NCBI GenBank assembly: GCA_947459205.1
Contig: CANHCR010000009.1
Location: 798 to 64,797, forward strand
DNA length: 64,000 nucleotides
DNA from: Bacillales bacterium
GTDB lineage: Bacteria; Bacillota; Bacilli; Paenibacillales; CANHCR01
Direction of reading: 5' to 3'
Part shown: positions 30,801 to 50,039 of the stretch, in pieces
Layout: every line of letters starts with the position of its first letter
Position numbering within the stretch: the first letter of the stretch is position 1
Notes under the pieces: model-generated
Told to the model about the DNA's origin: nothing
The model's input: the letters and a program-made list of their open reading frames with translations, nothing else
The model's database searches: none
Program-made: the position numbers and the translations under genes

Positions 30801-32399
30801 AGAGAATTGGATGCGCTAGATGTAGATGTACTCAGTCGTGAATTGAAAAGTTTGCGTGCGCGGTTCAAGGAAGAGACAGTGCAATTGATTCAGTTACGAA
30901 GTTTGTTGAAATTAAAGGAGAAAACAACAGATGAACAACTACAAAGTTTGAGTAGTTGGCTGTCATATACGAAAAAAATCGGAAAAGGCACAGGTAAGAA
31001 AGCCCCAATCTACATTAAAAGTGCAAAGCAAGAGATGATTAAGTGTCAGCAAACAGTTCCTGTCTGGATTATGCCGATGGAAAAGGTAATGCAAAATTTT
31101 CATCCCGCATCAAATCGCTTTGATCTTGTGATTATCGATGAAGCAAGTCAGTCTAATTTAAATGCATTGGCGTGCGTCTATTTGGCTAAACAAGTAATTG
31201 TAGTTGGGGATGATCAACAGGTAAGTCCCGAAAGTATTGGTGAAAAAGCAGATGAAATTCGTAGGCTGCGTGAAACGATGCTGGTGGGTGTACCGCATAC
31301 GAATCATTACGAGGGAAGCAGTTCGGTTTATTCGATGGCAAAACTTTCATTTCCACTTGTCGTACTACATGAGCATTTCCGTTGTGTTGCTCCAATCATC
31401 TCGTTTTCCAACCGCTTGTGTTATTCAGGGAAAATCAAGCCGTTACGAAACGCTGGATTTGTGAAGAGGTTGCCACATACTGTCGCTTATCAAGTATCAG
31501 GTACGATTGATAGGAATACAAAAACAAATGTTGAAGAAGCGGAAACAATCGTTTCCTTAATTCTTGCCATGCGAGATTTTCCTGAATATGATCGTGCGAC
31601 GGTCGGTGTTATAACCTTGCTAGGTGACGAGCAGGCAAATTTGATCGATCAACGCCTACGCCAATGCATGGATCCTAGAGAGTACGAGTCTCGTCAAATC
31701 CGTTGCGGGAATTCGGCGCAGTTTCAGGGAGACGAACGTGATGTGATGTTTTTATCGATGGTCCATAGCAGCGACGCAGAAGAACCGCTATATTTACTGT
31801 CGGATGCTGGGGAAAAAATGACGAAGCGCTATAACGTGGCAGTCAGTCGTGCGCGCGATCAAGTTTGGGTCGTGCATTCATTGAATAAGGATGTACATCT
31901 TAAGCCAGGTGATTTGAGAAAGAAACTGCTCGATCATACGACCAATCCTCACGCGTATGATTTGATTTTTCAACAACATGCGCCACAAACCGACTCTGAA
32001 TTCGAAAAAATGGTACTTAAACGATTGATTGAATTGGATTATCGTGTGATCTGCCAATATCCTGTAGGGGGCTATCGAATCGATTTAGTTGTCGAGGGGA
32101 ATGGGAGACAACTCGCGGTTGAGTGTGATGGCGAACGGTTTCATGGCCCTGAAAAACTCGAAGAAGATATGAATAGACAAGCAATCTTGGAGCGATGTGG
32201 CTGGACTTTCCATCGCATTCGAGGGTCGAAATTTTTTCGTAATCAAGACGAAGAAATTAAATCGCTTGTGCGCAAATTAGATGAGATGGAAATTTATCCG
32301 CAGGCATTGTCGACAGAGAGCAAGGTGATGGATGGAGAGCAATTGAAAAATGAAGTGATTCTGAGGGCTTCTGAGATTCGGGCGAGTTGGGCGGAGTAG
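27873..32399 (+). CDS. 1508-aa SF1 (Upf1/AAA_11-AAA_12-like) helicase with C-terminal Vsr/DUF559-like endonuclease
   Basis: Motifs VQGPPGTGKTHT, LVIIDEASQ, VVGDDQQVSP, LHEHFRC, QGDERDVMFLS and YNVAVSRARDQVWVV. C-terminal YRIDLVVEG..AVECDGERFHGP..DMNRQAILERCGW is Vsr/MTES_1575-like. Confidence 0.85.
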   Translation: MSTMDTNKSIDHTENRSLLKQIYEFLLEMYNLQNPPVLHLSKHDWKLSLQQFADNPHIDYKIYMNQDDLESDADNYFFRVVKPPLNDCPVPPSILKSWLREGWDHPNVSLDSEIIIFQRSSSELEKDKTVKFTDSDDRVSAFREWKIKRNAWATKEKPAREADLIYNKLFGLKSKLDRESDSIEAVIGDGVLRWKFNKQDSDTNHIVEYPLLTHKIELNFDPNIPSFQLSLAEISPELNLSLLRFIDVVAEEAIAESAKDLELNVSSILNHSETSSFLKRVASRISSRSQFLEFEEFKSDYLELPQIRREPILYLRKVTTGIPKALSDIIIDIQSNPVFSEAVAKLIGLAPSFHINQESSELSRTINVHGEDFEILLHKDANGDQLEIAKQLNRYGAVIVQGPPGTGKTHTIANLIGHYISEGKSILVTSHTSRALKVLVDKIDEDLRHFCVNLSDEGTAKQNMEFAVEQIKSRITKLNETETNDRIDELLQSRRSILRKMDSLRDSLKNARKQAFTSIIIDGQSYIPNEIAKTIDRQISEHGWIPLPINENAQMPLSHEELTKLYFTNQEISTQDEIELRLLPLKTSEIDDPLTFQNFVDEWKVCKNTIRSDVESWWKLDVPGEHQLESIIKSAKNVQNIFQSEFPWRQQIVNQLFTDSEQIQIWEEFIDSIKEVYELQKRCYRTSLDHDIVINDEAMNEENYQKLIQLYQSLGEHDTVKLGFFHFLNRSKYAFLKSCSFDGQTPTKPQQIKAVLDRVQLDLLRTKLRARWAKQVEPVLGPRLDDGGTPAEQKAYDWIAEIQSCLKWSETVWESHLNILEGNGFQIERLMEASKCTDLEHIRMHHIERIVLKVVDICEQSLFLHRIRKAQKERDRWLEKYRTISRKEPESELRKKLLRAVDEIQPQIFRDAYNKVQYYEKKYVYWVDRLEWLNKLRSVAPNWAREIEFRLHHHGASQVPGDANQAWLTRRLETKLRELDALDVDVLSRELKSLRARFKEETVQLIQLRSLLKLKEKTTDEQLQSLSSWLSYTKKIGKGTGKKAPIYIKSAKQEMIKCQQTVPVWIMPMEKVMQNFHPASNRFDLVIIDEASQSNLNALACVYLAKQVIVVGDDQQVSPESIGEKADEIRRLRETMLVGVPHTNHYEGSSSVYSMAKLSFPLVVLHEHFRCVAPIISFSNRLCYSGKIKPLRNAGFVKRLPHTVAYQVSGTIDRNTKTNVEEAETIVSLILAMRDFPEYDRATVGVITLLGDEQANLIDQRLRQCMDPREYESRQIRCGNSAQFQGDERDVMFLSMVHSSDAEEPLYLLSDAGEKMTKRYNVAVSRARDQVWVVHSLNKDVHLKPGDLRKKLLDHTTNPHAYDLIFQQHAPQTDSEFEKMVLKRLIELDYRVICQYPVGGYRIDLVVEGNGRQLAVECDGERFHGPEKLEEDMNRQAILERCGWTFHRIRGSKFFRNQDEEIKSLVRKLDEMEIYPQALSTESKVMDGEQLKNEVILRASEIRASWAE

Positions 32400-32413
32400 A
32401 GTCTATATTATTT

Positions 32414-32441
32414 TGTAGAAAAAAGGAATTTCTACATTTTC
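32414..32441 (+). terminator. rho-independent terminator
   Basis: tgtagaaa / tttctaca 8-bp stem (32414-32421, 32429-32436) plus tttt, 15 nt after the helicase stop. Confidence 0.7.
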
Positions 32442-32595
32442 ATAGAATAATATCCTTGTCGGCATACTCGAGTCTTATTGGATCGGAGTGTGATTCAACA
32501 GTGGCACTCATCCTATGTCCTGAATGTGGAAAATCGATATCAGATTGACCTTCCCCCTCAAAACTGATCCACTTCAAAAGTTAGTTTATGAACGC

Positions 32596-32785
32596 GGTGA
32601 AACGGTTGTTTCTGATCTCATTCAGAGCGTCAAAATTACTATGGATGATATTTTTCATTTTCGTAGTAGCTGATTTGTAGCGTTAAGTGATTTTACCATG
32701 AGTATAACCATGTGGTGTGATGGTTGAGAATTCACCACATGGTTTTTCTTTTTTGGCAGGAAAATCATCACCTATGTGGAAATTG
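32596..32785 (+). promoter_or_regulatory. leader-like module, copy 1 (diverged homologue of 51389-51579)
   Basis: Aligns by eye with 51389-51579 over its full length: gaaacggttgtttctgat, tcaaaattac, ttttcgtagtagctgatt, catgagtataaccatgtgg, catggtttttc-ttttttggcaggaaaa. Contains a 9-codon mini-ORF (32698..32727, MSITMWCDG) and a terminator. Confidence 0.7.
32706..32754 (+). terminator. intrinsic terminator inside leader module copy 1
   Basis: Perfect 12-bp stem aaccatgtggtg (32706-32717) / caccacatggtt (32733-32744) followed by tttctttttt. Confidence 0.75.
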
Positions 32786-32804
32786 TTTAAGAGGTCCCAA
32801 TCGT

Positions 32805-33000
32805 TGTCAATCACCCGTTTTCCATTGCGAATCCGAATCGATATTTTCGTTGATGAACCGAATTCAGTTGCTCTTGGTTGTACGTTTTCAGTAAATGGGG
32901 ATTAAGTTTTAATTTCGCTTGCTATCTGCGACACTTCAAGGCGATGAGATGTTTTACAATTTGCTGATACGTTAATATGAGATTTCGTAAAACTCGATGA
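32805..33000 (+). repeat. about 195-bp direct repeat, copy A (near-identical to 61294-61490)
   Basis: Base-by-base comparison shows one 1-nt indel and four substitutions. It ends at the RBS GAAGGAG of a 17-codon mini-ORF (33014..33067). Confidence 0.9.
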
Positions 33001-33130
33001 AGGAGTGATTCTCATGAAAGACTTACCGAAGGTTTTGCAAAAGCAATTTTTATTTAAAAATGAAACATGAGCCGCATTAGATAGAGGAAAAAGTTATGTA
33101 AGTCAATCACCCGAAAAAGTATCAGAAGCG

Positions 33131-34255
33131 ATGCAAAACAGCGAATGTAACCTAGCGCAAATTTTGCCGATGATTTCTGCAAATTCTCCAGAACATCACA
33201 AAGCCATCATCCAGCAATGTCCATCCGCAATTCGTGAAATGGCTAACCCTGATGAGGCGCTCAAATCGATGGCTTTGCAGATTGCACCTTGGATGCGACA
33301 TGTTTTACATCTTCGTAATGATGACGAAGCCCTGCAAAAACTGATTGAGGCGACCGTGAATCATGGGTTTTTTATGGAACGAGAGGCCGAACAGCCATCT
33401 CTGCATTTAGGCGGGGTCCCGTTTCCAAAGAAAATCTATTATCCGCTTGATCGCTTTCCGAACGACCATTTTAAATTAGATATTCATGACGCGAAGCGTC
33501 AATCTCAACCGCTGTCCAGTTCGAGAATTAACGAGCATGATGACCGCGTTGATGTTTCGCCTGATTTTGAAAGTTGGGCATGGTATCAAACGTTTCATGC
33601 ATGGTCGGATGAGGAATACGGCATCTATATCACCACGTCTGGTTTAGCAAGATTTGCGGACCGTGCATTTTATCAAGCGCTTTTACGACATGAGCACCAA
33701 TCGAATCCGAACCCAAATAAGACAGAATTGAAAAAGATATGGTCTCAGTCTTTGCAAATGGCTTTTCAGACCGTGCTATTTCATGAATACTATCATTTCT
33801 TTAAGGATATTGCAGCTGCCACTTTAGAACAACTTTGGTTCGCATTGAACCCTGGGAACACACGCCAGTTTTTTCATGAGTACAGAAAGAACATCTATTT
33901 TCCTGGGCTACATAACCGACTTCGTGAAGAGCCATTGGAAGAGGCGTTGGCGAATGCTTTTTCTTGGCGAGCGTTCTGCGAAAGATACTCAGATTCATCT
34001 TTGTATGATCAACAAGCGATCGAACTTGTAAAACAAGATTTGGCGAAATATATGACTAATCAACCAAGCGGGTACTGTCATTATGATCAATTTATTGAAG
34101 ACGCGGAGTATGTGAAAGGGAATCAACAACTGATCTCTTTGCTGTTGACTCAGCAGGCGAGTGTGATTCCAGGCAGCGAGCGTCTCTTGCAACCGACTTT
34201 CGCTGACATGTACAAGTATAACGTGCCCGTTTATGTGATTGATGATCGAGACTAG
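33131..34255 (+). CDS. hypothetical protein with HExxH motif (putative zinc metallopeptidase-like)
   Basis: 374-aa ORF with VLFHEYYHFF (HExxH) and a downstream acidic EEPLEEALANAF segment. Weak RBS. No family recognised. Confidence 0.6.
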   Translation: MQNSECNLAQILPMISANSPEHHKAIIQQCPSAIREMANPDEALKSMALQIAPWMRHVLHLRNDDEALQKLIEATVNHGFFMEREAEQPSLHLGGVPFPKKIYYPLDRFPNDHFKLDIHDAKRQSQPLSSSRINEHDDRVDVSPDFESWAWYQTFHAWSDEEYGIYITTSGLARFADRAFYQALLRHEHQSNPNPNKTELKKIWSQSLQMAFQTVLFHEYYHFFKDIAAATLEQLWFALNPGNTRQFFHEYRKNIYFPGLHNRLREEPLEEALANAFSWRAFCERYSDSSLYDQQAIELVKQDLAKYMTNQPSGYCHYDQFIEDAEYVKGNQQLISLLLTQQASVIPGSERLLQPTFADMYKYNVPVYVIDDRD

Positions 34256-34499
34256 AATCATAAAACGAATAAAAATTTTATTGAAAAAGATGGTCACTTC
34301 ACATAATCCTGAAGTTAAATGATAAATTTTATGATTTACATCACCAAACGGGTGAAAACATATTGGATTCGAGGTGATGAATTGACGGATTGCCAGGCAT
34401 TTTTTCATTGGTATAAAACGGATTTTTAAATATGCTACAAGAGAATGATGTGATAAAATTTGTATGGTATCGTTTTCAATCGTCTTAAATTTTTGGTTT

Positions 34500-34528
34500 T
34501 TGACGCTAGTAGTTTGAAGAAATATATT
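34500..34528 (+). promoter_or_regulatory. putative sigma-A promoter for the dynamin genes
   Basis: TTGACG (34500-34505), 17 nt, TATATT (34523-34528), within the 382-nt AT-rich gap upstream of 34638. Confidence 0.45.
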
Positions 34529-34637
34529 TTACATAATTGAGGATTTTAAATGAAATTATTGAATTATAACGATGCTGGTAAATTCTGTACGCATCAGGAA
34601 AATACTTTATCTTTCAATTCAAGGTGGTCTGATATCT

Positions 34638-36479
34638 ATGATTCAAACTAATCCATTTGTCGAGAAAAAAGACGTTCTAAGTGAGTGTAATCGAGAATTG
34701 CTTACCATCATTTCTGATGAGTATATGGCAAGTCGGGTTGAAGCTGCCCAGAAGCGCCTGACAAATGAGAAAATGAAAGTTTTAGTTGTGGGTGAATTCA
34801 GTCGAGGAAAGTCAACGTTCATCAATTCGATTTTGGGCAGACCGATTTTACCTTCAAAAGTAAATCCGACTACAACGACGATTAATATTATCGAAGGTGC
34901 CCTAGAACAGAAAATCATGATTGAGTATACTGACAAATCAACGGAACAGTTGGAGTTTCCGACTGATAAAGTGAATAAGTTTCTCGAAGGCTACGTTACC
35001 GTAGCAAATCAGCAGTGGAACAGAATTACTAAAGTAAATATTTATGTCGACAACAAGCTGAAAGATTGGAATTGTGTGTTGGTGGACACTCCGGGTGTCA
35101 ATGATCTTGACGCTTCTCGTGAAGACATTACATTTAAGTATTTATCGGAAGCAGATGCCTGCATTGTATTGTTGGACTCTCAACAGCCTTTATCTGAAAG
35201 TGAACGTGATTTCATAAAAAACAGAGTGCTAAAAAATGATGTGAATCGCTTACTGTTTGTTATTAATCGATTTGATGAGGCAGAGTCCTTTCCGAATGGA
35301 CCTCAATCGGAACGCATTATCAAACATGTTCAAAAGCTGATTGTAGAGTGTATACCAGAAATAAGCGACCCTGTTGTATACACTGTTTCCTCTAAAGAAG
35401 CGCTAAAAGGTAGATTTAAAAATGAGTCGAACGAATGGGAAACACATTTTAACGAATTCGAACGTCACTTGGTCAAATTTATTGCCGATAATGCCATTGA
35501 TAATAAGTTAAGTGTTCATGCAGAGCGTACCATTGGAATCTGTCGCGACTTAATGGATGATCTCAAATCTTCTAACTCTATGCTTTCTGTTTCACAGACG
35601 GATTTAGAGTCGATTAAGCAAAAACTCTTGAAAGAAAAAGAAATTGTGAACAACGAATTAAAGCTTCTCGATACAACCAGCTCAACGGCCGTTTTTACGA
35701 TGAAACAAGAAAACGTAAAGTTGGTCAATGGACATCTGCAGACACTTCGAACAAATTTGCTGAACATGGCGACATCCATTTCGAGTGAAGATGAGTACGG
35801 CGAGTTAAAAGTATACTTATCAAATGGTATCCGCGATTTAGTTGAATTATTGAGAGAGTCAATTGAGAAGATGAAAACACAATTTGAAAAAGATATCAAA
35901 GATAAGTGTACTTTTATCGGTTCGTCAACAACAGATATCGTTCTTAAATCGTTAGGACGGCAATTAAGTCCGGATCGCATCACGGATGTCGAGTTGATGA
36001 CAGATGTAAAAGAAACATCGAGTGCAGCTGAAGACGCGGTCGCGATTGGGGCAGGTCTAGGCATAGGAATATTGGGAGGCATGTTATTTGGTCCGGTTGG
36101 CATTGCTGCAACCATTCTTATCGGAAGGATTGTGGGCAAACATTTGCAAAGTCAACAGGAACAGCGGGAACTAGAAGCGTTGAAGCAAAATGTCATTGAT
36201 AATATCAATATTCAAATTTCGAATGTGCTTCAACATTTTTTAGAAAACAACGAAGATAGGTGCCGGGAAATCATTGATGAGGTAAAAGCGAAGTATGTGG
36301 AGATGGCCAACAGTAAACTTCGTTCGATGGAAAAAATCACGACGACACAGTTTACAGATATTGCCACTAAACAAAGGGATATTTCATCTGAGCAGGCATC
36401 TATCGCTTCCAAAATGGAAATCATGAAGAAAATTACTAGCATCTCTTTATCACTATTAGACAAAGGAGACATTACATGA
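34638..36479 (+). CDS. bacterial dynamin-like GTPase 1
   Basis: G1 GEFSRGKST, G3 VDTPGVND, G4-like INRFD. C-proximal Gly/Ala-rich hydrophobic paddle (AIGAGLGIGILGGMLFGPVGIAATILIG). ATG 34638 follows AAGGTGG (track start 34572). Confidence 0.9.
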   Translation: MIQTNPFVEKKDVLSECNRELLTIISDEYMASRVEAAQKRLTNEKMKVLVVGEFSRGKSTFINSILGRPILPSKVNPTTTTINIIEGALEQKIMIEYTDKSTEQLEFPTDKVNKFLEGYVTVANQQWNRITKVNIYVDNKLKDWNCVLVDTPGVNDLDASREDITFKYLSEADACIVLLDSQQPLSESERDFIKNRVLKNDVNRLLFVINRFDEAESFPNGPQSERIIKHVQKLIVECIPEISDPVVYTVSSKEALKGRFKNESNEWETHFNEFERHLVKFIADNAIDNKLSVHAERTIGICRDLMDDLKSSNSMLSVSQTDLESIKQKLLKEKEIVNNELKLLDTTSSTAVFTMKQENVKLVNGHLQTLRTNLLNMATSISSEDEYGELKVYLSNGIRDLVELLRESIEKMKTQFEKDIKDKCTFIGSSTTDIVLKSLGRQLSPDRITDVELMTDVKETSSAAEDAVAIGAGLGIGILGGMLFGPVGIAATILIGRIVGKHLQSQQEQRELEALKQNVIDNINIQISNVLQHFLENNEDRCREIIDEVKAKYVEMANSKLRSMEKITTTQFTDIATKQRDISSEQASIASKMEIMKKITSISLSLLDKGDIT

Positions 36480-38197
36480 ATATACCATACGGGAAAGTCG
36501 CAGACGAACTTCTCGAAATATCGAATGTACTGCAGGAACGCAGGGCTAACTTGCTTTTGCAACAGATTAAAGAAAATGAGCAACGAAATTCGTTCCATGT
36601 TGCAGTCCTCGGTGAGTTTAAACGCGGGAAATCTTCGTTAATCAATTCTCTGATTGGAGAAGAATTGTTACCAAGTGATTTATTGCCTGCTACCGCGGTT
36701 TTAAATGTGCTGGAATATGCTGAACAGCCTGAGTTGGTCATTAAGTGGAGAGACGGAAATTCTGAAACGGTCGAATTGACGAGAGAACAATTAAATAGAT
36801 TTACTGTGGAAGGTTCTGCGGACTCTGAGCAGGTTCAGTTTCTCGTTTTAAGGTGTAATTCACCTATCCTTAGGGAAGGTTTGGTGATTATTGATACACC
36901 TGGAGTAAATGATATTTCAGAATCGAGAATTGAAGTGACAAAAAACATTATTCCAAATTGTGATGCTGCCCTTTTTTTACTGGACGCTGCTGCACCAGTC
37001 ACCAGAAGTGAAGCTGAATTTCTTCAAACTCAGGTTCTTTCATTCAGCCTACATTCATTACTGTTCGTCATCTCTAAGGCCGATCGATTGGATGAGGAGG
37101 AATTGGAGGAATCCTTGCAAGGCGCAGAACAGAGATTGAAGCAGTTGCTATCAGTAGAACCTAACATCATTGCTTATTCGGCACGCGAAGTGATGCGTTC
37201 TATTCAGTCCAATGGATATTCAGAACAACAAACAGAACTGCTTCGACATGTTCAAAAGCTGAAGGAGAAAGCAAATAGTGAAAAAGTATTGCGTCAGTCC
37301 AGCAAACTGAAAGCTACCATCGCGATATTAGAAGACCATTTAGACAACGCTGAACAGATACTATGTCTTGATGAAACGAAATCACAAGAACTGATGATGA
37401 ATATTGAACAGCGATTGCGCTCGGACAAAGCGAAGTTTCACCAGTTCATAGATAGTATGAACATCGTGGGTCGATCAACCTTGGTGCGAATGTTCGAAAC
37501 ATCCTTTGATAAGTTCATTAAAGACTTAACGACTCAAATTCTTGATCAAATCCGAGTCGTTGATGATGTTGAAAAATATCTAACTAAGGCATTGCCAGTT
37601 GAAATCGAACGCTCTGTCCGGCTTTATACAGAGCGAAAAAGCAAGGAGATTTATGATTATTTGAAGAATTTCACGAATCATGTATGCAGTGAATACAATC
37701 GACAATTTCACTATGTGTTAAATTTGGATACGATGAACATTCATCTTCCTGAGTTGCAGCAAACTCAAAACGAAAACTCTCAAATGATGTCTATGATTGG
37801 CAGTTACTTGCCGATGACCGCATTGATGATTGCGGGGAGCATTATTATGCCTGGCATTGGCTCGGCAATTGGGATGGCTGCTGGACATTTATTACAAAAA
37901 CATTTGAATGATAAGAAGCAAAGTGAACTGCGAGAAAAGTATTTGGGTGCCATGCCAGATTTGGTGAAATCAGAATTACAGGGCTACAGACAAAATGTTG
38001 TGGAAACGATCAACGGACACTTCGATATGTTGATTCAAAAAGTACAATCTTTTCATCAGTTGCGTGAGGACGAATGGCTAGCGCTATCGGAAGGGACTTC
38101 GTCTGAAGTGAAATCTGATGAGTTAGAAAATCGACGAACAGAATATGAGATGCTAAAAGTTAAGTTGTTGACAATTAAAAAGGAGAGTGTTGGCTAA
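36476..38197 (+). CDS. bacterial dynamin-like GTPase 2
   Basis: G1 GEFKRGKSS, G3 IDTPGVND, ISKAD. Paddle MIGSYLPMTALMIAGSIIMPGIGSAIGMAAG. ATGA overlap with the upstream gene. Confidence 0.9.
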   Translation: MNIPYGKVADELLEISNVLQERRANLLLQQIKENEQRNSFHVAVLGEFKRGKSSLINSLIGEELLPSDLLPATAVLNVLEYAEQPELVIKWRDGNSETVELTREQLNRFTVEGSADSEQVQFLVLRCNSPILREGLVIIDTPGVNDISESRIEVTKNIIPNCDAALFLLDAAAPVTRSEAEFLQTQVLSFSLHSLLFVISKADRLDEEELEESLQGAEQRLKQLLSVEPNIIAYSAREVMRSIQSNGYSEQQTELLRHVQKLKEKANSEKVLRQSSKLKATIAILEDHLDNAEQILCLDETKSQELMMNIEQRLRSDKAKFHQFIDSMNIVGRSTLVRMFETSFDKFIKDLTTQILDQIRVVDDVEKYLTKALPVEIERSVRLYTERKSKEIYDYLKNFTNHVCSEYNRQFHYVLNLDTMNIHLPELQQTQNENSQMMSMIGSYLPMTALMIAGSIIMPGIGSAIGMAAGHLLQKHLNDKKQSELREKYLGAMPDLVKSELQGYRQNVVETINGHFDMLIQKVQSFHQLREDEWLALSEGTSSEVKSDELENRRTEYEMLKVKLLTIKKESVG

Positions 38198-38616
38198 TGT
38201 CTGATTTTTTGGATTCGATGTTTCATCAAAGCACGAGTAATGTATTCGGTGGCGAAAATATGTATAGTCAGAATGGAAGTCTAATAGGAAGTACGCAACC
38301 GAATGTATTTGGCGGTGAAAATTTATACGATGCCAATCATCAAATGATAGGGCACACAACGGATAATGTGTTTGGTGGTGAAAACATGTTCGACAACAGT
38401 CATCAGTTGGTTGGAAGCACCCAACCAGGTGTGATGGGGACAAATGTTTTTGACGGTCATCACCAGCAGATAGGACACGTTCAGTATGATGCTACAGGTG
38501 GAAGTTTCCATGATTTGCACGGACAACAAATGAGTTGGCAAAACAACATGTTTGGTGGCGTCACCATGGACCCGCTACAAAATACTGCAAGTTTGAGTTT
38601 TCCAAATTTGATTTAA
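38197..38616 (+). CDS. small protein built from 21-aa NVFGGEN-type repeats
   Basis: 139 aa. Repeats: NVFGGENMYSQNGSLIGSTQP / NVFGGENLYDANHQMIGHTTD / NVFGGENMFDNSHQLVGSTQP / GVMGTNVFDGHHQQIGHVQYD, plus degenerate copies. TAATG overlap with dynamin 2. Confidence 0.75.
   Translation: MSDFLDSMFHQSTSNVFGGENMYSQNGSLIGSTQPNVFGGENLYDANHQMIGHTTDNVFGGENMFDNSHQLVGSTQPGVMGTNVFDGHHQQIGHVQYDATGGSFHDLHGQQMSWQNNMFGGVTMDPLQNTASLSFPNLI
38239..38490 (+). repeat. 63-nt in-frame tandem repeat (4 clear copies) within 38197..38616
   Basis: Copies at 38239-38301, 38302-38364, 38365-38427 and 38428-38490, read from the DNA and translation. Confidence 0.8.
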
Positions 38617-38632
38617 AACAGGTGGTGAAGAG

Positions 38633-41600
38633 ATGTCGAATATCGGAAAACAATTAGTTGAAAAAGTTCTAAAAGGTAATCCGCTTCAAAATGAAACATT
38701 TCATTTTTTGAAAGATTCTCAAATATTTTGTCAAGTGAACAATTTTCAAGAGGAGCATTCTGGATATTTCTTTATTTCGAATCAGAGACTCGGATATGTA
38801 CTGAACGACGGAGAATGTTTTTACTATTTCCCTTATTCAACAGTATATCGATATGAATCTCAATATACTGATGAAACCGAGCAGTATGTATATATATCTA
38901 TTTTGACAATTCACGATAATCAATGGAAGTGGACACGTTTTCACGTACTTGTAGATGATAAGGTTTTTTCGAGTATTCAGTTTGTACTCGACTACAAGTA
39001 TTTTTATCCTGCAGAGACATCTAAAGGGGACATTAAGAAAATAGCAAGTTTGATTAATGAATCAAGATTCCAAGACGCGATCGATGTACTCAATGAGTTA
39101 GGGCAAAACGATCCGCTATGTGGAATCTACCATGCATTGCGATTTCAAGTCAACTCAATCCAAGGAAAAAGTGAATTCGCACAGTTTAATTTGATACAAA
39201 TGTTTGATACTCTGTCTATCTTGGATCCGGAACCGTTGATTTATGCCATTGACTCTCTTGAGTGGGATAGTCGTATCATTCAATGGATGAATCAATATCA
39301 AGAAAACACACTGGAATTTAGAATAAAAGAATATATGATGGCAAAGTCAAGAAAGAACCCAGTCGAGATTTTTCATGCGATGAACCAGATGTTTGCTCAA
39401 CTGGAAGGTGAATATTCTGATTTCGGCGACATTTTATCATTAAAGTCATCATTATTGATCAACTACTTCGTCGGATGGAGTCATCTATTAGATGAGAACA
39501 TGGTAAAGCGTACTCATCAACTCATAGTGGATACGGAAAAAAAATATATTCAATCGAATGATTTTGCTCATCTATCAGATGCTGAAGCGAACATGGTTGT
39601 CCGTAGAGGAGCTACGCTTAACAGTTATCCTCAATCAGGGTTGTTCGAATGTGTGCGAACCATGTATTCTACAATAAATGGATACCCTCAAATAAGTGAG
39701 ATGTTTAATCATCATCAGTTTGTCTCACTAGCGAACCATTCATTTGATCTTGTGTCTCTCTATGATGTTGACCAGAGTGACACATGTTCTTTCCTTTACA
39801 ATGAGTTGCCGGCGAAAGAAAAAAGCAGACTTATCAACAATATTTATTGCTTATTTGCGCTTTTGCGAACGGAGGGAATAACGGAAAAAACCAAGCAAGT
39901 CTTTAACTCCATGCGTACAAAAGAGGGTATCGACATCAATATTGTTTTGTCGAAACCACAGTTGATTTTGGAAACTAGTATCTACTTTTTTTCCTGCATT
40001 GAATATTTCATCTTAACGTCTCAGAAAAAACTCGCTAATGAATATATTCTTCACTATCGATTTAAATACGGTGAGGCACTCGGTTCGAACATTCATCATA
40101 TATTAAAATTTGGGAAAGATATTTTAGATGTTTATGAGGCTTGGGCCAACAGTGACATTCCATTATTAATGTCCGCCAAGAATTTTGAAGTTTTTCTTGA
40201 GATTGATTGGCTACCATCGCTATACATAAAATATATACAACCAATGATAGAGAAGCACTTAAAGCGACTCAATGAGAACCCTCAACAGTCCATGCATGTA
40301 GTGCGAAATAGTATATTAGAAATCACATCAGGTTTTCAAAGTCTTGCACAATCCAATGAATTGTTGCAAGCGAAAAAAACGAAAATCAATGAATATGTGA
40401 ACCAAATAAAGAATCGGTTGCATTCCGACGAATTACGGATTGCGGTCATTGGGGAAACAAGTGCTGGAAAGACATCGTTGCTTAATCGGATGTTCGCTAC
40501 AGATTTATTTTATGTGACCCAAGAAGAGGCAACAGGAGTACCGACAGAAATACGTAACGGGATTGAAGCGGATGCACAAGTGTTGGACCGGCACGGAAAT
40601 GTTGTGATTAGGCTGAATGACACACAAAAATTCGAACTAAATCAAATGATTAAACGTACCGTTTCGAATTCAAATGACACTAGTCTAAATTCTCAATTAC
40701 ATGCATTTATCAAACAACACACAAAAGTAGACGAAGAGCGTTCTGTGAATGTAGACAGAGTGGTTGTTACTTTACCGATTCATGATCTGCCGAAAAATGT
40801 AGTGATTATTGATACCCCAGGTTTTAATGCAAATCAAAAGAGAAGTGACATTGCCTTAAATGTGATTAATCAAGCACACGTTTGTATATTTATCATCGAT
40901 GCACGAAACGCCTTGAAAAGTAAAGAGATGAACATTTTGAGAACGGTTCGTGAGCAAACGGGTAAATTGTTCTTGGTGTTGAATAAGATGGATTTAATCA
41001 TGGGTGATGATGAATTAGATTGTGATGACGGTGATTCTATTAAGCAGACGTTGGATCGAGTGAATGGTGATTTAGTCCGTTTTTTTGATAGTGATAAATT
41101 CCAAGTGTGTCCAGTCACTTGTATGCCTGCGGATAGAGTGCCTGCGGAAATTGTGGAGTATGTCAATAATTTATCTAGTTTAAAAACGAGAGTAATTGAA
41201 CATGCAACAACCAATGAGTTGGAACTGATTACCGATATGGCGGTGAAAGAATCTGTCGATTTGATAGAAGAAGTTCAAACAATTATGTATCAAACAAACA
41301 CTCAGAAGATAAACAAAACCTACGAATCGATCGACAAGTTACCCATGGATCCTCACATACACGCTAGTTTTTTATATGAACAGATAAACGATTGGTTGTT
41401 TTCACTCGAGCAAAGTTATAAATCGAAGATGTATGCTTTTAATCTTGCAAAAATACAAGATGCAATCGATACTTTTGCCGCATGGGTCTCCAATCAAACG
41501 AGTAGTGATCATTTGACGACTGGCGCACAAGCGAAAGCGGAAAGTATACTGACGATTGCTGTCAATGAAATTAACCGAAATCGTAAGCAAGAACTGAACA

Positions 41601-42184
41601 AGTTTTTAACGGCTCTATCCAAGAATATCGGTGATTATTTTGTCGAACTATACAAAGGATACGACATTAAAATTCAAGTGAATAAAACTGAGATTGATAA
41701 TTTGTTAGAAAAAATACAACGTGTCACATCAACCGAGGTTAGTGCTATTGGAAACATTGATGATGGTGTAAAAGATCAACTTTCCGGAGCGGCAATCGGT
41801 GCAGCAATTGGATTGATTTTGGGACCGCTTGGTGCGCTCGTCGGAGGATTCTTAGGAGGTTTGTTTTTTTCGAAATCAATTGAAGAAATTCAATATGAAG
41901 TGAACCAGGCCTTTTATAACGTGGCTAACGATACGCATATGAAATCTAATCAAATGGTAGAGAATGAAATAAGTCTTCAGAACGATCAAACCATTATGGC
42001 GAAAATCGATGAGGTTTGTGAATCGATTATGACGAAATACATTCAAGCAGTAGATCGTGTGCGTGGTTCATACCGTAACGAGATTAATGAATCTTTGGAA
42101 CGAATTATTCAAACTAAACATCATATCACCGATATTGCTAATAAGAATGTTCTCCTTGAAACTTGGCGCTCGTCGCGAAGGTAG
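38633..42184 (+). CDS. large dynamin-like GTPase 3 with about 560-aa N-terminal extension
   Basis: Central G1 GETSAGKTS, G3 IDTPGFNA, G4 LNKMD. C-proximal paddle LSGAAIGAAIGLILGPLGALVGGFLGGLFF. RBS AGGTGG. Confidence 0.85.
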   Translation: MSNIGKQLVEKVLKGNPLQNETFHFLKDSQIFCQVNNFQEEHSGYFFISNQRLGYVLNDGECFYYFPYSTVYRYESQYTDETEQYVYISILTIHDNQWKWTRFHVLVDDKVFSSIQFVLDYKYFYPAETSKGDIKKIASLINESRFQDAIDVLNELGQNDPLCGIYHALRFQVNSIQGKSEFAQFNLIQMFDTLSILDPEPLIYAIDSLEWDSRIIQWMNQYQENTLEFRIKEYMMAKSRKNPVEIFHAMNQMFAQLEGEYSDFGDILSLKSSLLINYFVGWSHLLDENMVKRTHQLIVDTEKKYIQSNDFAHLSDAEANMVVRRGATLNSYPQSGLFECVRTMYSTINGYPQISEMFNHHQFVSLANHSFDLVSLYDVDQSDTCSFLYNELPAKEKSRLINNIYCLFALLRTEGITEKTKQVFNSMRTKEGIDINIVLSKPQLILETSIYFFSCIEYFILTSQKKLANEYILHYRFKYGEALGSNIHHILKFGKDILDVYEAWANSDIPLLMSAKNFEVFLEIDWLPSLYIKYIQPMIEKHLKRLNENPQQSMHVVRNSILEITSGFQSLAQSNELLQAKKTKINEYVNQIKNRLHSDELRIAVIGETSAGKTSLLNRMFATDLFYVTQEEATGVPTEIRNGIEADAQVLDRHGNVVIRLNDTQKFELNQMIKRTVSNSNDTSLNSQLHAFIKQHTKVDEERSVNVDRVVVTLPIHDLPKNVVIIDTPGFNANQKRSDIALNVINQAHVCIFIIDARNALKSKEMNILRTVREQTGKLFLVLNKMDLIMGDDELDCDDGDSIKQTLDRVNGDLVRFFDSDKFQVCPVTCMPADRVPAEIVEYVNNLSSLKTRVIEHATTNELELITDMAVKESVDLIEEVQTIMYQTNTQKINKTYESIDKLPMDPHIHASFLYEQINDWLFSLEQSYKSKMYAFNLAKIQDAIDTFAAWVSNQTSSDHLTTGAQAKAESILTIAVNEINRNRKQELNKFLTALSKNIGDYFVELYKGYDIKIQVNKTEIDNLLEKIQRVTSTEVSAIGNIDDGVKDQLSGAAIGAAIGLILGPLGALVGGFLGGLFFSKSIEEIQYEVNQAFYNVANDTHMKSNQMVENEISLQNDQTIMAKIDEVCESIMTKYIQAVDRVRGSYRNEINESLERIIQTKHHITDIANKNVLLETWRSSRR

Positions 42185-42305
42185 TTTGTAACCTAGAAGA
42201 TGGTTATAATTATACTCGCTTGGTTGACGAATAGGCTGTAGTGATACTCAGTAGCGTAGCCAATAAATTGGGGTTAAAAGATTCTACTGTTAAGGAGATC
42301 GAATA

Positions 42306-43943
42306 ATGAAAAAAATGAAGATTATCTTTGTTGTTTTGGTTGTATCTTTGGCATTTAATTTGCTGCCAACAATTTCATGGTCTCAAAGCCCGATTCAAAT
42401 TTATATCAATGGGGTAAAAAAGATTTATGAACAACCGCCTATTGTTCAATATAGCACCACTTTAGTTCCAATGAGAGGCATTTTTGAATCGCTTGGCGCC
42501 AAAGTGGTTTTTAATTCAAGCACTAGACAAATCACAGGTGTAACACCAACTGTTGAAGTGAAATTAACAATAGGTCAGAAAATTGCATCTGTTAATCAAA
42601 ATGGAAAGATTAAAAAATTATTGCTTGGTGTTCCCGCTCAATCATTAAAGGGAAATACGATGGTTCCTTTGAGGTTTATTAGTGAAGTACTCGGAAGCAA
42701 TGTTTCATGGAATCCGCAACAGAGAATTATTAATATTAACCAAGCGAAACCCAAATTACTGTTTAGTGTATCTAAAAAAACTTTGTTGATTGGCGAGACG
42801 ATTCAGTCAAATGTTACACTGCTTAATTTCTCTAAGAAATCACCTTTCGTACAGTATTTCAGCAATCGACCAGATATTTTACATGTTGATGATTTTGGAA
42901 GAATGACTGGTAAATCACTTGGGGTCGCAACGATAACAGCAACGACAGAGAATGTAGAATCTTCAATTAAGGTTGAAGTTACGAATATCATCTGGATCAA
43001 TGATGAAATTGTTCATTCTGCAAGTTCCGGAAACTACGGAAGTGTAGGTGTTTCGTACAATAAAAATCAATTCATGGTTAGAAACTCAATTTATGATTTG
43101 AACTCCGGTAAATTTTTAAAAAAGTTTGCTAATGATACTCAATTTTATAAAAGTGGAATCGTGGAATATAAGTCTGAATGGAATGCGTCGCCCAAAATAA
43201 ATTTTTACAGCGATTCTTTTAAAGCGGAAGGTCAAGCAGAAAGTGCGCTTTTCCCATCAACTATCATTGGTTCTCCATTCACTTCGGTTTTCGGAGATAA
43301 ACTGTTTTATATGGGAGGACAAAAAAAATATTATTTATATGATACATCTTTTCACGAAATTCTTACTTCATACCATTCAACTGAAGAAACCGGAGATTAT
43401 TTTTTCACTTCCAACGTAGCGAGTAATTATGACGAAAGTATCGTGGCAATAGATTCTACAGAAGGAAAGATTCACCTATACGATATGAAAAATGGACAAT
43501 TCATTAATAAATTAAATGCATATAATTATGCTGAGTCAACGAATGATTATAGTTTCGCGTTTAATCCCGGAGATTATCATTTTGGTTTACTTATCGATGA
43601 TCGTGCAAATGGTGTATTAAGTATAATAAATCCTTTGAATCAATCTCTAGAACACAGAATATCGTTCGTGAACAAAAAAATTCGAAGTTTTGCTTTTAGT
43701 CCTAGTGGTAAATTTGTTGTTGTAGGTGACAATAAAGGCACAATCACAATATTTAATTTGTCGGATTATTCGGTAGAAAAAACTTTGAGTACCAAACTTA
43801 ACATTTCAAAAAATAAATTGAACGAGGGAGCAAGTTCTGTTGAAAAGTTATCTTTTGCCAAAGGGGATAAAAAGATACTCGCTTTCTATTCGAGTAACTA
43901 TGACCCAAATGTGATTTGTTGGGATACCAACTTACCGAATTGA
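42306..43943 (+). CDS. secreted protein: stalk (copper amine oxidase N-like), Big_2-like Ig and beta-propeller/WD40-like regions
   Basis: Signal peptide MKKMKIIFVVLVVSLAF. Stalk-type LVPMRGIFESLGAKV and MVPLRFISEVLGSNVSW. Big_2-like GVATITATTENVESSIKVEV. C-terminal FAFSPSGKFVVVGDNKGTITIFNL. Confidence 0.8.
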   Translation: MKKMKIIFVVLVVSLAFNLLPTISWSQSPIQIYINGVKKIYEQPPIVQYSTTLVPMRGIFESLGAKVVFNSSTRQITGVTPTVEVKLTIGQKIASVNQNGKIKKLLLGVPAQSLKGNTMVPLRFISEVLGSNVSWNPQQRIININQAKPKLLFSVSKKTLLIGETIQSNVTLLNFSKKSPFVQYFSNRPDILHVDDFGRMTGKSLGVATITATTENVESSIKVEVTNIIWINDEIVHSASSGNYGSVGVSYNKNQFMVRNSIYDLNSGKFLKKFANDTQFYKSGIVEYKSEWNASPKINFYSDSFKAEGQAESALFPSTIIGSPFTSVFGDKLFYMGGQKKYYLYDTSFHEILTSYHSTEETGDYFFTSNVASNYDESIVAIDSTEGKIHLYDMKNGQFINKLNAYNYAESTNDYSFAFNPGDYHFGLLIDDRANGVLSIINPLNQSLEHRISFVNKKIRSFAFSPSGKFVVVGDNKGTITIFNLSDYSVEKTLSTKLNISKNKLNEGASSVEKLSFAKGDKKILAFYSSNYDPNVICWDTNLPN

Positions 43944-44187
43944 GAGAGAATCGATTACACATGCGTTCACAAACCTCGTCATGAATAAGTTGGCTGTGGA
44001 GAATCGTGACTAAGATGAATTGATATGGCGGATTCAGTCTGACCTATTGGGGAAAGACTTCCGTTTGGAGTGTTTTTCCTTTCAAGTAGCACTTTGTCAT
44101 ATTCGCAGGAAATTGAAGGAGATTCTAGAAAATTAGCGAATTAAATCATAAAGCAATTGAAAAATGATAATTTTAAGGAGCACAGAC

Positions 44188-46665
44188 ATGACTTCGACCG
44201 AAATTCATTACCAATGGATTGCTTTTTATATGGAATTGGCCAATAAACTTCTTCAATATAAGCAGAATCGAAGCGAACTTCTTCAACTTTTGGACAAGGC
44301 ATACCAGGAATCATTCGCAGAAACTGGTCTAAACAATCCGTTGAGGAAGAATCAAGAGGACTTGGAAGATGTGTGTCCATTCACATTTTTTGCGTGTTTC
44401 AATCGCGGCATCAAAGATGAAAATCGCACCGCACTATTGCGAGAACTGGGGAGATTGTTTCAAATATCGGCAGAAGCCCCTACATTATTTGACGGGATTC
44501 CCCTAGCTGACAACCGGAGCATGTGGTTTTTTGCCGGCAAAAGAAAGCGTAATCCCGATGACATTCAAAAATTGTGGGATATGTTTGAGGTCGCAATTCA
44601 CTATGCAGAGCAATCGAGGGATCAACATGTGGAAGAACGTTTTGTTGATTTGTTCGACCGTGTTTTAACGCAACATCAGGTGAAATGGAATTTGACAATG
44701 GGTCTATATTGGATTCGACCAAACTTCTATTTAAATTTGGAAGAAACGAACCGCAAATTCCTAACAGAATTGAGAGAATTTCAACAATCGGAAATTGGTG
44801 GTCAAACAAAATTTGCGGATATGCCGGACGGAACTACTTACTTGAAATTGTTAGCATGGTTCGAATTGTATTTTCAACAATCCGATGCGAATGAACAAGA
44901 TAAAGCCGGCAACTTTTTTGAATTGTCGCGAAATGCTTATGAAACTGCAAAATTAGCGAAATCTGATCGGATAAGATATATGGTTCCTGTTGTCACTGCA
45001 TTACGAGAGTTGGGCGGCTCAGCTAAACCTGATCAAGTCCGAAAGGAATTGATCCGTAATTTGCAACTAAGTAACGACGTGTTAAATGAGCTTCGCGGAG
45101 AGAATAAAGTATCTAAATTTGAACACGAAGTTGCGTTTGCCAGAGAGGCATTGGTATTTGCTGAAATGATCGAAAAAGGCAATCACGGAACTTGGAAATT
45201 GACTGAGAAAGGTCTTGCGCTTCAGTTTACAAATCGGATTGCAATTCAAATGTATGCAAAATATGAAAAAAATACAAAAACGAAAAAAGAACACGTTCCT
45301 AACACTGGCGCTCAACAGTATTGGATCATCGCTCCCGGTCAAAACGCCGAATATTGGGGGGACTTTCAGGACTCCGAAATTATCGGTATCGGATGGTTTG
45401 AAGTGGGGGATTTACAGCAATATGCCAATAAGAATGAAGTTACGGATGTGATGAAGAAACATTATGGCGAGGACAAAGATTATAGAAACGACTCGCTTGC
45501 AATTTGGGAATTCGTCAATCAGGTGAAACCGGGAGATATCATCTATGCCAAGAAAGGTACGCGATTGATAGTCGGTCGCGGTATCGTTCAGGACGATTAC
45601 GAGTTTGAAGTTAGCGATCGGGTGATTCCCCATAGACGAAAAATCGTGTGGACACACACAGGGGAATGGAATTATCCGTTTGATAAAGATATTCCGAGAA
45701 AGACTTTAACGAGAATAAAAAATCAAGCGTCGTGCGCTGCTTTGGAAAGTCTGTTTGGTGAAACTCAAGTGAAACCGCCTGCTACGGATGCCGCTTTTTC
45801 CGAGCAGGACTTTTTGACGCAAGTGTTTATGGGATCAAAAGATTTGACTCATTTGATAGGTATTTTAAAAAATAAGCGGAATTTGATCTTGCTGGGTCCG
45901 CCCGGAGTAGGGAAGACATATGTCGCTGAACTGTTGGCGTATGCGTATATGAATGTGATAGATAAAAAACGCATAACATTCGTTCAATTTCATCAAAGTT
46001 ACAGTTACGAGGATTTCATGTTGGGCTATCGTCCAAACCTTGACGGATTTGAAATGGGGTATGGCCCGTTTTATAAAGCGTGTAAAGAGGCCGAAAAAGA
46101 TCCCAGTCAATCGTACTTCTTCATCATGGATGAAATTAATCGTGGCAATATCAGCAAAATTTTCGGCGAGTTATTGATGCTGATTGAGGCTGACAAGCGC
46201 GGTAAGAAGATTCAATTGCTGTATGGAGATGAGTCATTTTATGTTCCTGATAATCTTTATTTGATCGGCATGATGAATACTGCAGACCGAAGTTTGGCAT
46301 TGATTGATTATGCTCTCCGTCGTCGATTTTCGTTTTTCGAATTGGAACCTGCATTTGAGAAATCGGGATTTAAAGAAATCTCGAAAACGGCGAACAATGT
46401 GAAATTTGATTTGCTTGTAGAAAAAGTGAAGCAATTAAATCGACATATTCGTGAAGACCAATCACTGGGAAGCGGTTTTTGCATCGGTCATAGTTATTTC
46501 TGTGTGACAGATTCTGTCGATGAAATGTGGCTGGAGCGAGTCATCAAATATGAGATTTTGCCATTGGTACAAGAGTATTGGTTCGATGACAAAAAGAGCT
46601 ATGACCATTGGCACAAGGAACTTATGCAGATCTTGGATGGACGGGAAAGCGAGCAATTGCAATGA
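44188..46665 (+). CDS. mcrB: McrB-family AAA+ GTPase with N-terminal winged-helix and EVE-like reader regions
   Basis: LLGPPGVGKTY, FVQFHQSYSYEDF, FFIMDEINRGNISKIFGEL and IGMMNTADRSLALIDYALRRRF are McrB signatures. Upstream QQYWIIAPGQNAEYW..PGDIIYAKKG is EVE/PUA-like. ATG 44188 follows TAAGGAG. Confidence 0.9.
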   Translation: MTSTEIHYQWIAFYMELANKLLQYKQNRSELLQLLDKAYQESFAETGLNNPLRKNQEDLEDVCPFTFFACFNRGIKDENRTALLRELGRLFQISAEAPTLFDGIPLADNRSMWFFAGKRKRNPDDIQKLWDMFEVAIHYAEQSRDQHVEERFVDLFDRVLTQHQVKWNLTMGLYWIRPNFYLNLEETNRKFLTELREFQQSEIGGQTKFADMPDGTTYLKLLAWFELYFQQSDANEQDKAGNFFELSRNAYETAKLAKSDRIRYMVPVVTALRELGGSAKPDQVRKELIRNLQLSNDVLNELRGENKVSKFEHEVAFAREALVFAEMIEKGNHGTWKLTEKGLALQFTNRIAIQMYAKYEKNTKTKKEHVPNTGAQQYWIIAPGQNAEYWGDFQDSEIIGIGWFEVGDLQQYANKNEVTDVMKKHYGEDKDYRNDSLAIWEFVNQVKPGDIIYAKKGTRLIVGRGIVQDDYEFEVSDRVIPHRRKIVWTHTGEWNYPFDKDIPRKTLTRIKNQASCAALESLFGETQVKPPATDAAFSEQDFLTQVFMGSKDLTHLIGILKNKRNLILLGPPGVGKTYVAELLAYAYMNVIDKKRITFVQFHQSYSYEDFMLGYRPNLDGFEMGYGPFYKACKEAEKDPSQSYFFIMDEINRGNISKIFGELLMLIEADKRGKKIQLLYGDESFYVPDNLYLIGMMNTADRSLALIDYALRRRFSFFELEPAFEKSGFKEISKTANNVKFDLLVEKVKQLNRHIREDQSLGSGFCIGHSYFCVTDSVDEMWLERVIKYEILPLVQEYWFDDKKSYDHWHKELMQILDGRESEQLQ

Positions 46666-47723: not shown

Positions 47724-47751
47724 TAAAAAAATGAATGAAGGAGTGTTTTAC

Positions 47752-48213: not shown

Positions 48214-48353
48214 TTTGATTTAGACCACTTAGATTTGAGAAAAGACGAAAACGGTGAGCATGTATATCGTTAGTAACGTAATGGTTAGTTCACATGGCGT
48301 TTGTTTTTGATGAAAGCTACTTTGAATTTTTGTATTTACGGAGGTGTGTTATA

Positions 48354-49838: not shown

Positions 49839-50039
49839 AGAGATTTGGATTGACTGTTCTTGCGACCCGTTGAAACATCAAGAAAAAATGTGACGCATGT
49901 CATCAAATTGGAGAAGTGTATGTTAGGGCATTCAATTTTTTCTGGTTTTTACTTTTAAAAATAAGTAGTTTCAAATTAAAAGATTTATAAAAAATTGAGT
50001 GTGGAATTCCTTTGAGATTATGAATTTGGAGGAGATTAA

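Follow-up and report, generated by a model that had tools for sequence, protein, structure and literature searches.

A conserved four-gene cassette of three dynamin-like GTPases and a small repeat protein, found here within a bacterial defence island

Bacterial dynamin-like proteins (DLPs) are usually described as pairs, and a run of three raises the question of what the working unit is, whether it belongs to a system already described, and what it does for its host. Such a run lies in the window analysed here, a 64,000-nucleotide stretch of a contig from a Bacillales bacterium. Three tandem open reading frames (ORFs) start at positions 34638, 36476 and 38633 on the plus strand, and each encodes G1, G3 and G4 motifs and a hydrophobic hairpin, as an earlier sequence-only reading of the window had described. 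The best overall explanation, to which we give a probability of about 0.6, is a horizontally acquired four-gene DLP operon (DLP1, DLP2, a small repeat protein and DLP3) that may act in this genome as a membrane machine limiting phage damage. The parts of this reading differ in strength. The cassette is very probably a self-contained four-gene membrane-remodelling DLP machine, and anti-phage defence as its selected role has somewhat less than an even chance.

The four genes occupy window positions 34638-42184 on the plus strand, and neighbouring genes overlap or lie no more than 16 nucleotides (nt) apart. DLP1 (34638-36479, 613 amino acids [aa], a dynamin-like GTPase of the BDLP/mitofusin class) meets its paralogue DLP2 (36476-38197, 573 aa) in an ATGA overlap at 36476-36479, by which the two are coupled in translation. 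DLP2 is joined by a TAATG overlap at 38195-38199 to the gene of the small repeat protein (38197-38616, 139 aa, cytoplasmic), and a gap of 16 nt leads to DLP3 (38633-42184, 1183 aa), a long dynamin-like GTPase with an N-terminal extension. The letters of each junction were read directly, and both overlaps are as first reported. A Shine-Dalgarno sequence precedes each cassette gene start. The DLP1 start at 34638, with AAGGTGG upstream, gives a protein of 613 aa that fits both the lengths of its orthologues and the public gene call. The 383-nt AT-rich gap 5' of DLP1 contains TTGACG-17-TATATT at 34500-34528 on the plus strand (10 of 12 matches in a consensus scan). This site is a candidate start of the four-gene transcription unit, promoter-like by consensus match alone. 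Further upstream, a strong intrinsic terminator at 32706-32755 (dG -21.2 kcal/mol, z -3.6, then a U-run) closes a helicase-nuclease gene.

Comparisons with Pfam, PADLOC and the PDB agree in placing DLP1, DLP2 and DLP3 in the BDLP/mitofusin class of the dynamin superfamily. A search with the Pfam Dynamin_N model (PF00350), a check proposed on first reading, brings out all three proteins far above the curated cut-off of 27 bits: 104.8 bits for DLP1 (6e-30), 98.1 bits for DLP2 (7e-28) and 73.4 bits for DLP3 (3e-20, residues 603-785). The G1 motifs read GEFSRGKS in DLP1, GEFKRGKS in DLP2 and GETSAGKT in DLP3; G3 is DTPG in all three, and G4 is NRFD, SKAD and NKMD, respectively. Each protein also has a Gly/Pro-rich hydrophobic segment (Kyte-Doolittle 1.7-2.0), and the hairpin lies near residue 476 in DLP1 and near residue 449 in DLP2. 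With intact GTP-binding motifs and a membrane-type hairpin, all three are GTPase-competent by motif, and the three paralogues keep G1, G3, G4 and the hydrophobic hairpin across 12 cassettes.

Among solved structures, sequence matches place Nostoc BDLP nearest, with IniA, Cj-DLP1/2, mitofusins and LeoA further off. The closest solved relative of DLP1, which has a helical stalk, is Nostoc BDLP (2j68, 7e-23), and DLP2 matches BDLP at 2e-27 and Cj-DLP1/2 at about 1e-14. DLP1 and DLP2 score about 108-110 bits against each other, and either scores 20-40 bits against DLP3. Scores of each paralogue against its own orthologues are 288-440 bits (290-430 for DLP1, 300-440 for DLP2 and 288-357 for DLP3). 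Because these lie far above the scores between paralogues, the triplication is old and the genes travel together.

The length of 1183 aa first given for the third GTPase holds, and its N-terminal extension measures about 600 aa rather than the 560 or so claimed, since the P-loop lies at residue 607. The extension had also been described as being of unknown function; comparison of orthologues and modelling instead point to a conserved module with a PH-like and a helical-repeat part. A confident AlphaFold2 model built on a 25-sequence alignment has a mean predicted local distance difference test (pLDDT) score of 79.4 and a predicted template-modelling (pTM) score of 0.73. Its top PDB matches in Foldseek are BDLP, IniA, Cj-DLP1/2 and SynDLP, over 660-840 columns, and mitofusins. 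In the model, the predicted PH-like domain (residues 1-125, 38633-39007, plus strand like all parts of the gene) comprises seven beta-strands within residues 23-106 and a capping helix at 109-124, with pLDDT mostly 72-87 over the block. The Pfam family bPH_3 gives a weak match in two of ten orthologues (0.023), a Foldseek search of the region against BFVD gives weak matches to phage "Bacterial PH domain" proteins, and E21 and R52 are invariant in the family alignment. A TPR-like helical-repeat array follows (residues 128-596, 39014-40420). It is modelled as all-alpha, with about 25 helices and pLDDT mostly 70-95 apart from a low-confidence loop at 328-350, and TPR_19 matches four of ten orthologues (best 3e-6). 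By analogy, this array is proposed to be a sensor or partner-binding module.

The GTPase domain of DLP3 (residues 601-830, 40433-41122) has G1 at 607, G3 at 727 and G4 at 784-787, and 25 family members share G607, K613, D727, G730, N784, K785 and D787 without exception. The helical neck and trunk (residues 838-1182, 41144-42178) are modelled as long helices with a low-confidence hydrophobic hairpin segment at 1034-1079. Hydrophobicity peaks at 2.02 at residue 1052, within a Gly-zipper paddle hairpin placed at about residues 1046-1079 (41768-41869), and the paddle glycines G1060, G1067, G1071 and G1075 are conserved. Residues 1046-1114 also give a sub-threshold C19orf12-like match (3e-4, 21 bits against a cut-off of 30). 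The idea that the extension is a degenerate second dynamin, as in DynA, was ruled out by the predicted beta-sandwich and helical repeats, which lack G-domain topology. A Pfam scan of the extension returned TPR and bPH matches only, and PDB profile searches with it returned only noise.

The fourth member of the cassette lies between DLP2 and DLP3 in every copy. An 11-sequence alignment shows that the small protein repeats a unit of about 21-22 aa five times (NvFGGeNxyxxxxQxiGht, in which GG and QxxG motifs stand out), and that a conserved C-terminal tail, DPL...FPxLI, follows. Its orthologues are 137-186 aa long, some with seven repeat units. The pattern recalls the beta-flowers, Tubby-clan proteins for which an association with membranes or lipids has been proposed (PMC10584680). 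Criteria for that fold include five hairpin repeats, [DNEQ]xxG tips and, in many cases, a C-terminal element inside the barrel (PMC10584680). The small protein likewise has five short hairpin-type repeats, its Q-x-x-G tips fit the [DNEQ]xxG motif, and its conserved tail may be likened to the C-terminal helix found within many beta-flowers. The protein thus resembles a beta-flower-like repeat protein of the Tubby clan, with a family score below threshold. Unlike in this cassette, beta-flowers are described with no mention of a dynamin association (PMC10584680).

How far the arrangement is conserved was judged from loci gathered by a genome scan, a metagenome scan and look-ups of the encoding contigs around DLP1 homologues. 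The four genes stand in a fixed order in 13 other independent loci, 14 with the window, and 13 of these are complete. Junctions within the cassette range from -46 to +36 nt, except in a frameshifted Cohnella copy, and the successive proteins of a typical cassette measure about 615 aa (first DLP), about 575 aa (second DLP), 137-186 aa (small protein) and 1083-1301 aa (long DLP). The loci come from Neobacillus (L003), Clostridium uliginosum (L004), Cohnella kolymensis (L007/L016), Brevibacillus panacihumi (L009), Paenibacillus puerhi, Paenibacillus sp. LjRoot153 and Paenibacillus thalictri (L011-L013), Caldicellulosiruptor acetigenus (L030), a Bacillota/Peptococcaceae metagenome-assembled genome (MAG; L008/L033), three metagenome contigs (L006, L018 and L035) and a deltaproteobacterial MAG (L015:1971-7305) whose contig ends inside the third DLP.

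The cassette family is rare and patchily distributed. Word-seeded searches found about 250 homologues of DLP1 and, for DLP3, essentially the query alone; orthologues of DLP3, about 26-30% identical, came to light only through the neighbourhoods of DLP1 and an exhaustive HMMER search. That search found 38 proteins at E<=1e-30 among 1.84 billion representatives. A pattern-limited scan of 185,579 species genomes returned nine loci, namely eight cassettes in seven species (Brevibacillus panacihumi is counted twice) and the truncated deltaproteobacterial contig.

Variants indicate which parts belong together. Two-gene relatives (L031/L032:10001-15167 and L034:1470-6710, one of them from a Planctomycetaceae MAG) pair a short DLP of about 605 aa with a long DLP of about 1090 aa. 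They lack both DLP2 and the small protein, and this joint absence links the small protein with DLP2. Their long DLP has an extension that shows partial homology to the one in DLP3 (hhalign 80%, E 1.5e-5). The deltaproteobacterial locus, which lies outside Bacillota, keeps the order DLP1-DLP2-small protein-DLP3, and its third DLP starts about 50 aa before the P-loop, without the PH/TPR extension. Sequence comparison here hints at an older three-dynamin core, to which the extension was added or from which it was lost. In Paenibacillus puerhi, a fourth, divergent dynamin gene (L011:1546-3735, 729 aa, Dynamin_N 1.5e-11) lies 51 nt 5' of DLP1, so that this species holds a four-dynamin cluster. In Cohnella kolymensis (L016:11854-17793), DLP2 is split into 466 and 120 aa and DLP3 into 1111 and 83 aa, which reflects either cassette decay or frameshifts of a draft assembly.

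Horizontal acquisition is the best explanation for this distribution on sequence grounds. Cassettes whose DLP3 proteins are 65-68% identical occupy different genomic contexts, a pattern that fits a mobile accessory module. In the window, the GC fraction of the cassette is 0.37 against 0.53-0.57 at the SbcCD end, where the SbcCD genes (4522-8789) with their higher GC mark the core genome.

The setting of the cassette in this genome is related to defence. Positions 10000-51000 form one long island of defence genes, all on the plus strand. Upstream of the cassette lie a DrmD-like SNF2 helicase (14535-17822), an RNase_T-BRCT protein (18633-19562), an AAA_21 and RloB pair (19659-21525), a type III restriction-modification system with a separate RE_endonuc gene (21534-26576), an EVE-HNH protein (26592-27722) and a 1508-aa superfamily 1 helicase with an MTES_1575 nuclease, PDC-S37/Hhe-like (27873-32399). 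Downstream lie a McrB-like Mrr_N-AAA_5 protein and McrC (44164-47723). Clear defence neighbours occur in three of the 13 complete loci: the window, a BREX locus and a DruA/AbiEii locus. In the BREX locus (L035:1-21839, a Paenibacillus-like metagenome contig), the cassette is directly downstream of BrxC/PglY, a PglX methylase, PglZ and an SNF2 helicase. In Caldicellulosiruptor acetigenus it has DruA on one side and AbiEii on the other, along with an IS110 element, and in one further locus a WYL regulator lies 5' of it. Some PADLOC matches were set aside. Those to BrxL, DolB and mad8 all fall on one generic AAA-Lon protein in L013, those to AriA are probably to ABC ATPases of L004 and L006, and matches to mad3 (two ORFs) and JetD (one ORF) in the flanks were untraced; none is counted as defence.

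A mechanism can be proposed from the better-studied dynamins. The three DLPs would assemble on the cytoplasmic membrane as a heterotypic complex, for which Cj-DLP1/2 and the two halves of DynA are precedents. DLP1 and DLP2 may form the core pair and DLP3 a regulated third subunit, whose PH-like/TPR-like module might sense a trigger or recruit a partner. The Tubby-clan-like small protein would bind lipid or serve as an adaptor, in closest association with DLP2. Tethering and fusion powered by GTP could then seal or stabilise a damaged membrane. In this host the purpose may be to limit phage-induced membrane damage or lysis, as for DynA and Eleos; an anti-phage purpose appears most likely in this genome because the cassette is embedded among restriction, helicase-nuclease and McrBC systems. 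A defence role is plausible. That the cassette is a distinct, previously undescribed system of anti-phage or membrane immunity, with a heterotypic three-subunit dynamin, a PH-like/TPR-like module on its long subunit that senses a cue from phage or from envelope damage, and a Tubby-clan beta-flower subunit that binds or reorganises lipids, is a more doubtful proposition that we advance only tentatively.

Several known dynamin systems offer points of comparison. DynA of Bacillus subtilis, two fused DLPs with a part in membrane repair, delays phage lysis via its membrane paddle (PMC12998192), and dynA was called a housekeeping gene in B. subtilis by Millman et al. (bioRxiv 10.1101/2022.05.11.491447). 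Like DynA, the cassette represents a BDLP-class GTPase set of Bacillota that may act heterotypically, and its DLPs carry a predicted counterpart of the hydrophobic paddle that DynA needs for membrane binding. At about 1190 aa, DynA is near DLP3 in length. The two differ in that the N-terminal half of DLP3 has no G domain in the AlphaFold2 model and in that the cassette comprises three separate GTPase polypeptides and a small protein; dynA is called a housekeeping gene, whereas the cassette is rare and patchy.

Bacterial DLPs act as heterotypic pairs, as in the Cj-DLP1/2 heterotetramer (PMC6104087). Nostoc punctiforme BDLP (2j68) and Campylobacter jejuni Cj-DLP1/Cj-DLP2 (5owv) are the closest solved relatives of the cassette DLPs in both sequence and fold, with a G domain, a helical neck and trunk, and a paddle in common. 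Cj-DLP1/2 also sets a precedent for operon-paired DLPs that form a heterotypic membrane-tethering oligomer. Identity in the structural alignments is just 12-15%, however, and these relatives are single proteins or pairs that lack both the N-terminal PH-like/TPR-like module and a beta-flower partner. The mycobacterial iniBAC operon (IniB and the DLPs IniA and IniC) likewise combines DLPs with a small non-GTPase protein, and IniA is among the top structural and sequence matches of the cassette DLPs. IniB is a small Gly/Ala-rich repetitive protein. The iniBAC operon is actinobacterial, antibiotic-induced and part of a membrane-stress response, and it has two DLPs where the cassette has three. Full-text literature searches found no bacterial triple-dynamin operon and no association of a dynamin with a beta-flower, which is not proof of novelty.

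How large the unit is, and whether it is a form of a known system, can be weighed against two alternatives. The sequence-only reading had set the GTPases in a larger operon with unrecognised partners, between an upstream HExxH protein and a downstream secreted propeller-like protein, and both of these ORFs are indeed present on the plus strand. The 374-aa protein (33131-34255) has an HEYYH motif, and the 545-aa protein (42306-43943) has a signal-peptide-like N-terminus, Cu_amine_oxidN1 and Big_2 domains and a WD40-like propeller. A six-gene system in which the two are functional partners of the GTPases could draw on the shared strand of all six genes and on their adjacency in other contigs found for this organism. 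The 122-nt gap between DLP3 and the 545-aa gene contains no terminator-like structure (fold z -0.77), so that read-through into the 545-aa gene is possible in this organism. That reading is nonetheless very improbable. Neither the 374-aa nor the 545-aa gene has a homologue in the flanks of any of the 13 other cassettes, and the 545-aa protein shares just the generic Cu_amine_oxidN1 domain with non-adjacent genes elsewhere. The 374-aa gene ends 383 nt 5' of DLP1, with the promoter-like site in between. Its product has no match in Pfam, PADLOC, NCBIfam, PHROGs or the PDB, and a word-seeded search among 5.8 billion proteins found no homologue but itself. A comparison of 104 flanking ORFs and the window flanks, all against all, shows no family common to at least three loci. 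Co-conservation, which had been suggested for the 139-, 374- and 545-aa genes, is therefore seen for the 139-aa gene, present in every cassette, and for neither of the others; the sequence-only reading had itself named such an outcome for the flanking genes as speaking against it. Since the flanking genes are not co-conserved with the cassette, the conserved unit in these comparisons is four genes, not six, and the six-gene model is largely refuted. The corrected unit spans 34.4-42.2 kb in place of 33.0-44.0 kb.

The other alternative is that the cassette is a known member of the Eleos family with one duplicated GTPase that works exactly as Eleos does. Two genes (LeoA and LeoBC) make up Eleos, which is reported to be co-localised with known defence systems in 60% of cases (bioRxiv 10.1101/2022.05.11.491447). 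Millman et al. (2022), who named it "dynamin", tested a copy taken from Bacillus vietnamensis; the system guards against jumbo phages, and both of its P-loops are required (bioRxiv 10.1101/2022.05.11.491447). Both it and the cassette are operons of consecutive DLPs with intact P-loops, three cassette loci (this one included) are in defence islands, and a membrane-based, GTP-dependent logic is likely in each. The distant relatedness proposed on first reading is also borne out. All three DLPs match the LeoA and LeoBC models of PADLOC over most of the model length, LeoA (4aur) is among the PDB sequence matches, and DLP1 and DLP2 cover the LeoA model to positions 543-550 of 559. Scores against LeoA (PDLC03839) are 103.5, 78.6 and 70.6 bits for DLP1, DLP2 and DLP3 (4e-30, 1e-22 and 4e-20), and against LeoBC (PDLC03841) 59.2, 53.2 and 60.0 bits (weakest 7e-15). 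These matches are weak and appear non-specific, however, at 53-104 bits for models of about 560-600 positions. LeoA is the best match for all three proteins and LeoBC for none, DLP1 is nearer to Nostoc BDLP than to LeoA (84-99 against 33 bits), and LeoA is not among the PDB matches of DLP2 at E<=0.001. Eleos is also commoner, in about 1% of genomes against dozens of lineages for the cassette, and its reported defence-neighbour frequency exceeds that seen in the small sample of cassette loci. Eleos has two genes, with LeoBC sometimes split, and the cassette has four in fixed order in 14 loci: three DLPs, a non-GTPase beta-flower-like protein and, on DLP3, a 600-aa PH-like/helical-repeat extension. 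The layout thus exceeds that of Eleos, as the sequence-only reading had noted. By its gene content, the cassette fails the two-gene architecture and is not a canonical Eleos, and identity with that system is improbable.

Whether the four-gene machine serves defence is the harder question. A quite possible alternative, though one we place below the anti-phage role, is an accessory module for envelope stress, membrane maintenance or development that is not dedicated to fighting phages. Pore-forming antibiotics or wall stress would trigger it, or it would take part in fission during sporulation or division, on the models of DynA with nisin, mycobacterial IniBAC and Streptomyces DynAB, and horizontal transfer would have brought it into this defence island only incidentally. 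Known bacterial DLPs do have stress, vesicle or division roles, and nearly all hosts of the cassette are endospore-forming Bacillota. Most cassettes lie among ordinary genes (nitroreductases, a ROK regulator, ABC transporters, SAM synthetase, SASP, polysaccharide deacetylase and molybdopterin oxidoreductase), and matches to defence models in the flanks are sparse. A maintenance role sits less well with the very patchy and rare spread (nine loci in 185,579 species genomes; 38 representatives at E<=1e-30), with closely related cassettes in different contexts, and with three loci inside unmistakable defence islands, one of them flush against BREX. Against a sporulation-specific role also stand the cassettes in a deltaproteobacterial MAG and in Caldicellulosiruptor, which is not known to sporulate.

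Several further observations weigh against the reading preferred here, a horizontally acquired membrane machine that limits phage damage. Defence neighbours in three of 13 loci compare poorly with the 60% reported for Eleos, although the loci compared are few, and elsewhere the neighbours have mostly a housekeeping look. Among the 104 flanking ORFs of 11 other loci, DruA and the WYL regulator are the sole accepted specific PADLOC matches (E<=1e-8). Searches of viral contigs and phage genomes found no relatives of the cassette, and plasmids yielded remote dynamins only, with no direct link to a mobile element. That the proteins would form a complex and bind membrane, and that the DLP3 module would be a sensor, are proposals drawn from precedent. 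For the small protein, the match to Bflower_2 (PF21785, 5-fold beta-flower, clan CL0395) reaches 4e-7 and 30.2 bits against a cut-off of 38, and only three of 11 family members match PF21785 at E<=0.01. A single-sequence AlphaFold2 model of the protein is all beta-hairpins and unreliable (pLDDT 48, pTM 0.33), and a PDB profile search with the family gave no match.

The value of the cassette lies in what it could add to the study of bacterial dynamins, for which the link from infection to the GTPase is missing even in DynA and Eleos. It brings a candidate sensor or recruitment domain, in the DLP3 module, and a beta-flower-like protein from a fold family without known function. If the more specific proposal is true, no prokaryotic dynamin system before it would have combined a dedicated sensor domain with an accessory protein that binds lipid. 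If active, the cassette would provide a tractable four-gene model for dynamin regulation, for beta-flower function and for whether dynamin-based membrane immunity extends beyond the single Eleos type.

A few features of the surroundings stand apart from these questions. The 374-aa gene lies inside the defence island between the terminator and the promoter-like site of the cassette, and its orphan product might act in regulation or as a one-gene defence system that has so far gone unrecognised. By our own estimate, roughly 1% of proteins this long would carry a bare HExxH by chance. Between the cassette and McrBC lies the 545-aa surface protein, an unusual thing to find in a defence island. Three ORFs 3' of McrC (47731-50999, plus strand; 160, 514 and 319 aa) have no NCBIfam or PHROGs match; the 160-aa and 514-aa ORFs are also without a Pfam match, the former with a faint CrcB-like membrane match, and all three are candidates for unknown island cargo. 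The 730-nt gap behind the helicase-nuclease gene (32399-33131) contains the terminator at 32706-32755, and 5' of the latter lies a short zinc-ribbon-like stretch (CPECGK), possibly a gene remnant.

Two other loci have features of their own. Downstream of the cassette in the BREX locus lie a TerB-GTPase of 830 aa and a GTPase with a DLP_helical domain, so that there may be five GTPases in a row. In one lineage, the Bacillota/Peptococcaceae MAG, the DLP3 orthologue (L008:9836-13741 / L033:14015-17920; 1301 aa when read as the longest ORF and 1296 aa by the public gene call) carries an additional double zinc-ribbon N-terminal to the PH-like domain, and the upstream neighbours of this locus are an ADP-ribosylglycohydrolase and a DUF2779 protein.

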